A stretch of 64,000 nt of DNA from Candidatus Obscuribacterales bacterium (GTDB taxonomy: Bacteria > Cyanobacteriota > Vampirovibrionia > Obscuribacterales > Obscuribacteraceae): positions 384,001 to 448,000 of the forward strand of contig CBDDIJ010000005.1 in NCBI GenBank assembly GCA_965228855.1, in the 5' to 3' direction. Shown here in pieces: positions 6,364 through 11,659 of this stretch. How positions within the stretch are numbered: the stretch's first letter is position 1; each line of letters begins with the position of its first letter. The notes beneath the pieces are model-generated. The model was not told the DNA's origin. It did no database searches and saw only the letters and a program-made list of their open reading frames with translations. The translations under genes were made by a program, and so were the position numbers.

Positions 6364-7017
6364 ATGAGTAAAATTGCCACAATTCTTCAGCCGCGCGCGC
6401 TGCCAGCGTCACCGGAGAATGTTCTTTTCTCCAACATGGCTTCTGATGCTTCCGGTGCGCAGAAGTTCAATGCGCTCCTAAAATCCTGGCAGAACAGTGG
6501 CTCGTTTCCTATCGTTGAAAGCCTGGAAAACGTTGACACGCAGACGGGGATGCCGGGTGCACAGATCGCCACTACCCCTGGTGCCGTTGAAACTGCGCCC
6601 ACAAAATATTTGCTGGATAAACTCAACCAGTCCGTCGAAGCCGGCAAGACCAGCTGCGTCGAGCAGGTACTTCAGTTGATCAACGGTCGGTCAAAAACCG
6701 CAATCGCAATTTTAATCGAATTTAAAACGGCATTGACCAATCGCTCAGAAACACCTGTAAAAGTCGATTGGGAAACTGGAACAGATTCGTCGGGTAAAAC
6801 CTTTGTGCGTTTAAACCTTGTGGCAATGAACGACTTGAACAAGGGCTCGGGCGCAACTAAGCTCGTAATAGGTAGCGATGGCACCACATACGCCACCTTC
6901 AAGGAACGCTGGAACTGCCCGCCCATCTATATTTCCCCGGATGATGCCCTGGCTAAATTTGGAAGCGGAAAAAGCCAGAATCGAAGGTGGTCCACCTCGA
7001 CCGGCCTTCGAATCTGA
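6364..7017 (+). CDS. Hypothetical protein
   Basis: 217-aa ORF, ATG preceded by AGGTG; no family recognised. Confidence 0.55.
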   Translation: MSKIATILQPRALPASPENVLFSNMASDASGAQKFNALLKSWQNSGSFPIVESLENVDTQTGMPGAQIATTPGAVETAPTKYLLDKLNQSVEAGKTSCVEQVLQLINGRSKTAIAILIEFKTALTNRSETPVKVDWETGTDSSGKTFVRLNLVAMNDLNKGSGATKLVIGSDGTTYATFKERWNCPPIYISPDDALAKFGSGKSQNRRWSTSTGLRI

Positions 7018-7255: not shown

Positions 7256-7447
7256 TTATGCGCAGAAACTGGGGAAAAGAACCAACAGGTTGTCGCGTTT
7301 TGCATGTTTGACGACGTTGCTGTCATTTTTGTTGTTGAGCTTATTCATGAGACTGTAGTCTACATTGCTTGCTTCGACTTGAGCAGTTTGTTTGCTAAAC
7401 AGGTCGATTACATTGTTCTTCCTGCTGTTGATTTGACGTGTATTCAT
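7256..7447 (-). CDS. Small Asn/Lys-rich protein, 63 aa
   Basis: MNTRQINSRKNNVIDLFSK...LFPSFCA; GAGGG RBS 8 nt before ATG 7447; hairpin follows the stop. Confidence 0.55.
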   Translation of the reverse strand: MNTRQINSRKNNVIDLFSKQTAQVEASNVDYSLMNKLNNKNDSNVVKHAKRDNLLVLFPSFCA

Positions 7448-7475
7448 TGGATTGACCCTCGGTTGAATTGCTTCA

Positions 7476-7900
7476 TGTAGACAATATACCACACACAAAT
7501 GAAGTGAAGTCTACTTTTTTGATGATTTTGTATTAAATATCCTACGATTCGTTTGACTTTCAAACTTACCCCAATCCAGCTCAAACCAAAACAGGCAACC
7601 GTATACGAATTTGAGAGGAGGCTGCGATGTAGTTTTTCTTCTACACCACTAAAGTAGATTACCGTCTACAAGAAAGCTCACAGAAAGACAAGAGGGTGAT
7701 TGTAGACGACAGACTACGTTTCTAGAGTCGACTGCGGGGCGGTACGGCGGGAGTAGACTCCAAACTACAAAACTGTTTCCTTATATAGGTACGCGAAAAA
7801 CGCTCTCGCACGAAATCAATGAAATATATAACGATATCGAGTTACCACTGCACCAGACCGAAGGTGTTGAGCTAAAGAAGCTGTAGATTCGAAACTACAG
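7476..7900. promoter_or_regulatory. Array of GTAG-N8-CTAC palindromes, putative operators (5 exact, 2 with one mismatch)
   Basis: Exact copies at 7628-7645, 7653-7670, 7701-7718, 7752-7769 and 7882-7899; one-mismatch copies at 7476-7493 and 7529-7546. Confidence 0.75.
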
Positions 7901-7947
7901 GAAACCCAATTACTCACAAGACACTATTTAAAAGCAGGTGGAGAAAG

Positions 7948-8337
7948 ATGGATAAGGATTTTGTTTCAACGAGCACGGATAAAGAGGTTTATGTTAACCG
8001 GGTTGAAACGAGACAGCCTGATGATTCCGGAACCGGCTGGGCAGTCGCACTGATCGTGTTGATTCTCGCCATAGGCTTCGGCTTTGTGGCATTCTCGAAC
8101 AACCAGGCGATGAACGAGATCAAAACTTCGCAGACGCTAGAGCAGATGCGCCGCGACAACCAAGCATTGAGCACGAATGCTCCCGCGGTCGTGCCGCCAG
8201 TAGCCGCTCCGACGACCAACAATGTGGAAGTGAAAGTACCGGAAGTGAAAGCTCCGGAAGCTCCGGCTCAAGTCGACGTCAACGTTGCGCCGCCGGAACC
8301 GGCTGCTGACCCGGCAATGGAACAGCCGACCGAGTAG
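7948..8337 (+). CDS. Small single-pass membrane protein with Pro/Ala/Val-rich C-terminal tail
   Basis: AGGTGGAG RBS; TM segment GWAVALIVLILAIGFGFVAF; low-complexity tail. Confidence 0.8.
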   Translation: MDKDFVSTSTDKEVYVNRVETRQPDDSGTGWAVALIVLILAIGFGFVAFSNNQAMNEIKTSQTLEQMRRDNQALSTNAPAVVPPVAAPTTNNVEVKVPEVKAPEAPAQVDVNVAPPEPAADPAMEQPTE

Positions 8338-8370
8338 CCCATATAACTAATGACATAACTGTCAATCAAG

Positions 8371-8405
8371 AGAAAGAGGGGATTCACCCCTCTTTCTTAT
8401 TTTTT
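8371..8405 (+). terminator. Intrinsic terminator overlapping the rnhB stop codon
   Basis: AGAAAGAGGGG-ATTCA-CCCCTCTTTCT followed by TATTTTTT. Confidence 0.7.
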
Positions 8406-11158: not shown

Positions 11159-11659
11159 TTACTCCTTCGTGCCACTAACCATGGTGGCATGACTACCTTC
11201 GAGAACCGTTTGCGCATCCTTGAGCGTGTTTAGCTCTGAAACGAAGTCCTCGATCGAACGAAACTGTCTGTAAACGGAAGCGAAACGCACATATGCGACT
11301 TCATCAAGGCTGCGTAAACGGGTCAGCGAAAGCTCTCCAAGCAATGTAGCCGGAACTTCTTTCTTGCCTAAAACAGCAAGCTCGTTCTCAACGGAATCTA
11401 CAAGGTCATCAATTTGCTCGGCTGTCACCATGGTTTTCGCACACGCGCGTCGCACACCACCGAGTAATTTTTCCCTCGTATAGGGCTCTCGGCTACCCGA
11501 GCGCTTCACAACCAATACTTGCATTACCTCGAGTCGCTCATACGTAGTAAAGCGCTTGTTGCACGCTTCACACTCTCGCCGCCGCCTGACCGAATTTTCA
11601 CCGGTCAAACGCGACTCCAGGACGCGACTGTCTTTCTTATTGCAAAATGGACAGAACAT
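11159..11659 (-). CDS. nrdR: Transcriptional repressor NrdR
   Basis: MFCPFC, RRRRECEAC, RFTTYE, ATP-cone, DEVAYVRFASVYRQF. Confidence 0.97.
   Translation of the reverse strand: MFCPFCNKKDSRVLESRLTGENSVRRRRECEACNKRFTTYERLEVMQVLVVKRSGSREPYTREKLLGGVRRACAKTMVTAEQIDDLVDSVENELAVLGKKEVPATLLGELSLTRLRSLDEVAYVRFASVYRQFRSIEDFVSELNTLKDAQTVLEGSHATMVSGTKE

Follow-up and report, generated by a model that had tools for sequence, protein, structure and literature searches.

Conserved palindromes between divergent small-protein genes of an Obscuribacterales bacterium and their predicted XRE-receiver regulator

The nearest described counterparts of the sites considered here are the operators of the controller (C) proteins of restriction-modification (R-M) systems. 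The OM operator of Esp1396I is 18 bp long, with TG at positions 1-2 and CA at positions 17-18, both of them needed for binding, and a central TATA (PMC2691842). Arg35 of C.Esp1396I reads the TG, Thr36 and Arg46 read the GAC/GTC, and the dimer represses at OM by overlapping the start site (PMC3488213). C.Csp231I and C.EcoO109I have widely spaced operator pairs, for which looping has been proposed (PMC4321490), and C-like regulators without R-M genes are noted in PMC2632904. Two further sites enter the comparison: the GacA/UvrY box TGTAAG-N6-CTTACA (PMC11837529) and the 16-bp NrdR box acaCwAtATaTwGtg(t) (PMC4009431).

The DNA considered in this study, called the window throughout, is a stretch of 64,000 nucleotides from a Candidatus Obscuribacterales bacterium (positions 384,001 to 448,000 of contig CBDDIJ010000005.1, assembly GCA_965228855.1). 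I will refer to its genome (8.2 Mb) as G000, to positions elsewhere in it by contig (C2, C3, C5), and to relatives and their loci by G and L numbers. A sequence-only reading of the window had described seven 18-bp palindromes at 7476-7899, and all seven are where it placed them. I conclude, with a probability of roughly 0.65, that they are operators of a 220-aa XRE-receiver regulator, part of a small, probably stress- or stationary-phase regulon of Obscuribacterales. The same motif recurs at the promoter of this regulator and at three further genes, two encoding sigmas and one being a paralog of the 63-aa gene that borders the array. Judging from these sequences, the regulator is predicted to switch both small genes flanking the array and two alternative sigma-70 genes. 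The array system resembles C-protein operators but is not R-M control.

The array and the genes beside it

The features of the region are as follows.

7256..7447, minus strand: gene of a 63-aa protein, unannotated, of no known family; predicted target gene
7476..7493, no strand: operator 1 (TGTAGACAATATACCACA), with very little variation within the genus, at 27-34 bp from the start codon
7498..7515, no strand: degenerate site about 21 bp from operator 1, with one arm, over the predicted -35 region
7529..7546, no strand: operator 2, 53 bp from operator 1
7628..7645, no strand: operator 3, perfect arms, with orthologous sites in G007, G002, G005 and G006
7653..7670, no strand: operator 4, at a variable spacing from operator 3 (25/33/35 bp)
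7701..7718, no strand: operator 5, at a variable spacing from operator 4 (48/39 bp)
7752..7769, no strand: operator 6, with a clear counterpart only in G007, the closest relative
7780..7792, no strand: second conserved element, (C/T)TATATAGGTAC, conserved in the genus alignment
7850..7875, plus strand: GCA-N15-TGAGCTAA element, directly before operator 7
7882..7899, no strand: operator 7, both arms perfect, 48 bp upstream of the 129-aa start codon
7948..8337, plus strand: gene of a 129-aa protein; predicted target gene
8370..8398, both strands: terminator-like hairpin where the 129-aa gene meets the convergent RNase HII gene

The array thus lies, as had been said of it, between divergent small genes (63-aa ORF, 7447-7256, minus; 129-aa ORF, 7948-8337, plus). 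The dense packing of exact cores is also real: GTAG-N8-CTAC occurs five times in the 64-kb window, every time inside 7629-7898, and shuffled windows contain 0.27 copies on average and two at most, none of 100 shuffles reaching five. Similarly, 7448-7947 holds seven sites with no more than two mismatches to TGTAG-N8-CTACA (mean 0.25 and maximum 3 in 1000 shuffles). Operator 2 had been counted as having one mismatch, which holds with respect to the 8-base core but not the 10-base arms, where it has two. The spacer is fixed at 8 bp as described, but its sequence is not free: between orthologous sites, identity is 0.90 in the arms, 0.73 in the spacers, and 0.39 in the flanks, and spacers tend towards W-n-TATA-n-W. 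Conservation of arms and spacers relative to flanks marks out an 18-bp footprint.

Centre-to-centre steps from operator 1 to operator 7 are 53, 99, 25, 48, 51 and 130 bp. The distances of 48, 51 and 53 bp from which about five helical turns had been deduced are correct, but no such phasing extends across the array, the 10.5-bp phase coherence being 0.05 over 28 neighbour distances in six genomes. Only the 53/54-bp distance between operators 1 and 2 is conserved (6/6 genomes, and both paralog arrays as well); the middle distances vary (25/48 vs 33-35/39).

The array is kept in six of the seven other genomes of the genus, the outcome of the check proposed for orthologous intergenic regions, and the intergenic DNA finds matches in those six and in none of the 53 other genomes searched. 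The proposed genome-wide enrichment did not materialize: there are 26 exact GTAG-N8-CTAC sites in 8.2 Mb, near the bottom of the range found with other spacer lengths (15-67), a number that also speaks against the suggested nucleoid-organising site. The perfect 10-base motif is likewise not enriched (7 in G000 vs 11 for the reversed control) and does not exceed 8 per genome across 104 genomes. The array is almost certainly a real operator array, and the view of it as a set of conserved sites at small-protein genes, bound by a dimeric regulator, is supported as a prediction. As separate observations, TGTAG-T-CTACA occurs at 7354-7364, inside the 63-aa gene (part of its VDYSL codons), GTAG-N1-CTAC has 47 copies in the genome, and two regions of G000 (C2:647467-648006 and C3:3403137-3403683) carry GTAG/CTAC words more densely than the window array, without the 8-bp spacing.

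Several sites cover predicted -10 boxes. On the minus strand, operator 1 reads TGTGG-TATATT, some 36 bp upstream of the start codon of the 63-aa gene, and includes a predicted extended -10 for it (TG-n-TATATT, 7491-7483); it is probably part of this gene's promoter, and its conserved departure from the consensus would be accounted for in that way. A near-identical copy precedes the sigma/regulator pair of G012 (L065). The degenerate site 21 bp away, of which the window keeps only CTACT, is complete in G001 and in the paralog arrays L037 and L122. Operator 2 covers a predicted leftward sigma-70 -10 (GATATT, 7541-7536; -35 TTGAAA, 7563-7558), the only promoter-like match in the scan, in which chance alone would give 1.9.

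On the other side, operator 7 is present in 7/7 aligned genomes and in G021 of another genus. The GCA and TGAGC-A of the GCA-N15-TGAGCTAA element before it are invariant in the seven aligned genomes, and the element is a candidate alternative-sigma promoter of the 129-aa gene; genome-wide it has nine matches, four of them non-coding, with no clear second target. The (C/T)TATATAGGTAC element, possibly a -10 box, recurs at the C3 paralog of the 63-aa gene, 337-341 bp from its ATG. It is not an NrdR box in this genome, the best comparison leaving 8 mismatches.

The 63-aa protein carries the motifs NNVIDLF, VDYSL and NLLVLFP and ends in Cys-Ala. Its gene occurs in six of the seven other genomes of the genus and in no other genus among 104 genomes. 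The 27 homologs in databases have no Pfam match, the best ESM Atlas score (0.80) is uninformative, and the residues V13, D15, K19, V29, D30, L33, C62 and A63 are invariant in 24 rows. Codon-position identity of 0.69/0.77/0.46 in five genomes is a coding pattern, and with it an unannotated, conserved small-protein family is uncovered. G000 has a 61-aa paralog at C3:896800-896982 (the profile that spotted it included one wrong and one doubtful ORF and served that purpose alone). The G004 counterpart (C263:68155-68343, L241) is interrupted by a TAG within the small gene; it has also lost the middle of its array and shows degenerate forms of operators 1 and 2, the picture to be expected from loss of function or from an assembly error. 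The 129-aa protein, whose sequence has a single hydrophobic segment and a tail rich in Pro and Ala, is a membrane protein; it is matched in 16 of 104 family genomes, and a Pfam search gave nothing above cut-off. The gene of its closest paralog (E 6e-10), at C2:2369639, adjoins that of the candidate regulator. A 217-aa ORF beyond the 63-aa gene (6364-7017, plus strand) has no match in Pfam or PADLOC and is absent at this place in G007 and other relatives, which points to a recent insertion.

Recurrence of the motif and the candidate regulator

A profile trained only on the relatives' copies of the array (34 sites from six relatives) finds 12 matches of at least 17 bits in G000, ten outside ORFs and five being the window's own. 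Over the 8.2 Mb it gives eight clusters, four of which, the window array included, have at least three sites. Those away from the window are as follows.

C3:897002-897134: in front of the 61-aa paralog; three sites, at 0, 21 and 53 bp
C2:2370821-2371021: between the gene of the 220-aa XRE-receiver protein and a divergent sigma-70 gene (sigma-1)
C3:1714413-1714508: upstream of a second sigma-70 gene (sigma-2), divergent from Ku

The spacing in the C3 paralog array is the same in its G002 ortholog. Sigma-2 is the closest paralog of sigma-1 (E 7e-131); both are RpoD/RpoS-like group proteins below all NCBIfam cut-offs shown, and they group, with weak support, apart from the genome's other RpoD-like sigmas (G000 has at least ten RpoD-like sigma-70 paralogs among 14 matches). 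The sigma-1 promoter sequence TTGACA-17-TATATT has one site lying over its -10 and a second that ends 6 bp upstream of its -35. Across 30 loci of this sigma clade, 27 have a site and three have none, and a pair of sites 42-44 bp apart is present at 22, including 14 of the 21 without a regulator gene in the stretch examined. Orthologs of the regulator (at least 50% identity) occur in 19 genomes, all of them among the 20 of 104 with the sigma clade, a co-occurrence (19/20) that represents about six genera rather than independent draws and depends on thresholds of my choosing. The neighbours of these loci include Transgly_assoc, holin_4_2, glycogen-debranching and glycosyltransferase genes, with Ku at sigma-2. 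In genus g16 (L051-L055), what lies divergent from the regulator is a gene fragment of 143-148 aa that resembles a sigma region 3; these loci keep the promoter site, and full-length sigmas with the site pair are encoded elsewhere.

The regulator gene (C2:2370125-2370787) encodes 220 amino acids, with Pfam HTH_3 followed by a C-terminal Response_reg. The best PDB matches of its first 75 residues are C.BclI (E 3e-11), C.Esp1396I and C.AhdI, PADLOC's control protein matches at E 1.7e-15, and the predicted structure of the HTH superimposes on C.BclI with a TM of 0.91 and an rmsd of 1.3. The top folds for the receiver model are 6xvu, 1i3c and 1k68 (Rcp1/BRR receivers), and the residues of the acidic pocket and phosphorylation site are conserved, with E89, D90, D143, K196 and P197 invariant and T175 nearly so in 22 rows. 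Database names for its relatives go no further than response regulator or XRE/CheY-like. A literature search by motif strings, and on this regulator by titles and the starts of abstracts, returned nothing matching, although the logos in PMC2632904 could include the motif.

That the XRE-receiver protein binds the array is suggested by association. Eighteen of 20 regulator orthologs have a site scoring at least 13.7 within 300 bp upstream (empirical p no greater than 0.0031 vs 5222 genes), the 20 loci coming from 18 genomes with L050 left out for its 31 bp of upstream DNA. In 15 of the 20 the site is at most 57 bp from the start, several with a TATAAT spacer, and the start-proximal self-sites include two copies in other gene contexts. 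XRE-receiver paralogs do not share this property: none of nine reaches 11 within 300 bp, one having 13.1 at -342. The regulator orthologs of G123 and G124 show no site in the loci examined, though their sigma promoters have sites, and G009 has the sigma site pair with no match to the regulator HTH in a genome 89% complete, its sigma lying 790 bp from a contig end.

A gene for an ETR1_N-PAS-HisKA-HATPase kinase lies 1.9 kb from the regulator gene (C2:2366404-2368203; L038:405-2201). It is within 4 kb in four of seven relative loci, and the other three end earlier on that side. Ethylene receptors have a Cys-x3-His copper site; the ETR1-like domain of this kinase reads AGGAAH at that position and so is probably not an ethylene sensor. 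No restriction endonuclease or methylase gene was found among the neighbours scanned (C2:2361001-2381000), where the sole REase_II match is the regulator's own HTH. It had been noted that no cognate regulator is encoded near the array, and that stands: the nearest identified regulator gene is that of NrdR (11159-11659, minus strand, 3.3 kb away), which has its own boxes at the ribonucleotide reductase genes, and the likely cognate is on another contig.

Controller-protein likeness and other possible binders

The candidate shares with C.Esp1396I, C.AhdI and C.BclI the HTH_3 fold and an HRTY/DRTY recognition helix, with Arg35, Thr36 and Tyr37 kept. Its sites share with OM an 18-bp palindrome, outer TG/CA and a TATA-like centre, and, as with C proteins, they lie on the regulator's own promoter, one site overlapping a target promoter. 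Among 69 sites chosen on arms alone, the fractions are 0.96 for G2, 0.75 for T1, 0.68 for T8 and 0.59 for A9; in sites without -10-like spacers, T8 is 0.70 and A9 only 0.40. Within the array's inner box, G5 occurs in 60 of 68 half-sites, A6 in 31 and T6 in 33, and position 7 is mixed, so the inner GAC of OM is only partly matched. In contrast to C.Esp1396I, the candidate has Lys in place of Arg46, the T3-A4-G5 arms are conserved with positions 6-7 free instead of GAC, and there is no 35-bp OL-GTG-OR tandem. It differs from C proteins also in having a fused receiver near a histidine kinase, in its 220 aa as opposed to a stand-alone 70-100 aa, in the failure to detect a linked R-M gene in 20 kb, and in its trans targets on three contigs. 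The distant palindromes of C.Csp231I and C.EcoO109I (spacers of 18 and 25 bp there, 24-25 bp at the sigma promoters), with a distal site upstream of the promoter and a proximal site on it, offer a further likeness; their recognition sequence (CTAAG-N5-CTTAG), R-M context and lack of a receiver domain set them apart.

The arms are not diagnostic of the binder, since TGTA(G) arms are carried by sites of ribbon-helix-helix (RHH), toxin-antitoxin and ECF sigma promoters. In genus g21 (L123:2060-2159, L124:2095-2195), two TGTAG(C)-N6-GCTACA sites 82-83 bp apart precede the gene of an ECF-like sigma, downstream of a hybrid kinase and a receiver, and no XRE-receiver ortholog was detected in that genus. 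Promoters of Phd/VapC-like loci (L125, L127, L133, L137) and killer/antidote-like loci (L128, L130, L132), presumably toxin-antitoxin families, carry TGTAG-N8-CTACA in several genera; I rejected a Phd-type antitoxin and an addiction-module antidote as binders, the same arms being found in relatives' promoters but tblastn giving no match in G000. NrdR was also rejected. The best match to its box in the array region has 8 mismatches, compared with 3 for the boxes at the reductase promoters (C2:2185791, C5:1393676 and C2:421862, with a tandem pair 31 bp apart at C5).

Another C-protein-like XRE protein (e.g. C2:1465843, C3:377399, C3:2964227 or C3:3748891) might bind the sites, alone or together with the XRE-receiver protein, though I consider this unlikely. 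The genome's large contigs hold five other C-like XRE genes whose products could cross-bind, His-Arg-(Thr/Ser)-Tyr is retained in several of these paralogs, a perfect site lies 168 bp upstream of C2:1465843, and among 12 stand-alone XRE genes of G013 and G020 two are preceded by a site scoring at least 11. But only one of eight loci homologous to C2:1465843 reaches 11 (14.4; one more scores 9.9), the XRE-receiver paralogs fall short as already described, and in G000 none of the other C-like XRE genes is beside the sigma gene. A factor that does not regulate itself (Crp, LuxR/NarL or other), binding all the sites and controlling the XRE-receiver gene, the sigmas and the small genes from above, has about the same small chance of being right. 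The evidence for the XRE-receiver protein is, after all, entirely associative. Self-sites are missing at the regulators of G123 and G124, in G009 sites occur although no regulator was detected, and sites between the regulator and sigma genes are not assignable to one gene, so that a third factor could control both. The specific candidates fare poorly, however. The likeness to the GacA/UvrY box drawn by the sequence-only reading extends to an 18-bp palindrome that starts with TGTA, is bound by a response regulator and controls small non-enzyme products, but TGTAAG is found in 0/68 array half-sites and 0/62 regulator/sigma half-sites, and the candidate binder is XRE rather than LuxR, with small proteins and sigmas as targets. 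The NtcA geometry, with the consensus used in that reading, is absent (no GTA-N8-TAC in 7448-7947, vs six GTA-N10-TAC), the site before the OmpR-type gene C3:98612 is not conserved in any of the three relatives with upstream DNA, and the three reductase promoters with NrdR boxes score at most 5.3 on the array profile. A factor of this kind would, moreover, make the C-protein-like geometry a coincidence.

Two other explanations are much harder to uphold. An Arc/Mnt-like RHH protein (C3:184402, 197 aa), found in 26 of 30 family genomes sampled, merits attention because its close orthologs' operators are TGTA-N10-TACA, with the same outer arms and 18-bp length, arranged in tandem over their own promoter, and because its 21-bp tandem spacing resembles the 0/21 and 0/21/42 spacings at target promoters. 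The inner bases, T6-Y7-R8-C9 in the RHH operators and G5-W6-n-T8-A9 in the array, make its binding to the array highly improbable: T6 occurs in 59/62 RHH half-sites and purine-8 in 58/62, but in only 33/68 and 22/68 of the array's. Under the RHH model, the array sites average -6.5 bits and 3/34 rise above background; under the regulator/sigma model, their inner bases average +3.3 bits and 31/34 are positive (10.7% of random windows). No site of the window's seven reaches 15 bits on the RHH profile, though one site of the C3 paralog array does. The RHH protein (L141:1903-2493; loci L146-L170) is itself highly conserved and restricted to the family (0/120 other genomes of the class), with a C-terminal domain of no recognised kind and two or three 18-bp operators at a 21-bp period on its own promoter. 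It is still less probable that the palindromes are stems of RNA or extruded DNA, such as sRNA hairpins, as had been suggested, or REP-like repeats. Each site can form a stem of 4-5 bp, and RNAalifold draws such stems in the middle region. Folding, however, is no better than in shuffles (z-scores -1.39 and -1.16), the covariation term (+0.72) speaks against pairing, arm pairs show no coordinated variation, and arm changes are 64 one-sided vs 4 two-sided, which together argue that these are not RNA stems. There is also no match near a gathering score in Rfam, nor a repeated GTAG...CTAC family at spacers 7, 10 and 19, and the fixed spacer length and placement on promoters do not suit RNA or REP stems.

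A possible circuit and what it would mean

If the XRE-receiver protein is the binder, each subunit would read one TGTAG arm, with Arg37 on the outer TG and Thr38 on the G5/C14 pair in the manner of Arg35 and Thr36 of C.Esp1396I, and the TATA-like centre of the site would bend. The PAS histidine kinase next door would set the regulator's activity through Asp143, phosphorylation of the receiver changing dimer stability or DNA affinity. Where an operator covers a -10 box, the bound dimer would repress, which applies to the regulator's own gene, the two sigma genes and the 63-aa genes. Occupancy of operator 7 would block the 129-aa gene's start, and sites located immediately before the -35 (at 42-43 bp at the sigma promoters and 53 bp in the window) may activate or loop. 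Operators 3-6 would add occupancy without fixed phasing. The outcome would be a timed pulse resembling that of C proteins.

RpoS/RssB/Ira and PhyR-NepR-EcfG are general stress switches, and Ira proteins shield RpoS from degradation. The loci considered here are like these switches in placing a kinase and a receiver regulator beside an alternative sigma, with Ku and Transgly_assoc nearby; they differ in that control seems to be transcriptional, through the XRE domain, with no anti-sigma or adaptor shown. A role in stress or stationary phase is suggested by the neighbours (Ku, Transgly_assoc, holin_4_2 and others) and by such regulons elsewhere. I would go further only speculatively, to a picture that I think has a modest chance of being right: a general stress or dormancy switch of Obscuribacterales derived from an R-M controller, in which a kinase-driven fusion of C protein and receiver times itself and two RpoS-like sigmas through activating and repressing operators, and the 63-aa proteins, encoded beside the densest set of operators, serve as ClpXP decoys. 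These proteins share N-(V/T)-(V/I)-x-F with the sigma N-termini and end in Cys-Ala, and so could protect the sigmas from being degraded. The C-terminal ends, LAA in sigma-2 and CA in the small proteins, resemble ClpXP tags; a motif similar to that of the small proteins occurs in 18 of 6749 ORFs, mostly unrelated. G000 also has a tmRNA (C2:2199557-2199945), found by Rfam and missed by ARAGORN, whose tag reading ends in RAAA and contains NDNVI, which only loosely resembles the small-protein motif.

Gene regulation in the non-photosynthetic sister lineages of Cyanobacteria is almost uncharted. For one of these lineages, the analysis proposes a regulator together with its binding site, a kinase and six genes as predicted targets. 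If the proposed reading is true, the DNA-binding domain of C-protein type, known from mobile restriction systems, would have been recruited into the chromosomal two-component control of sigma factors.
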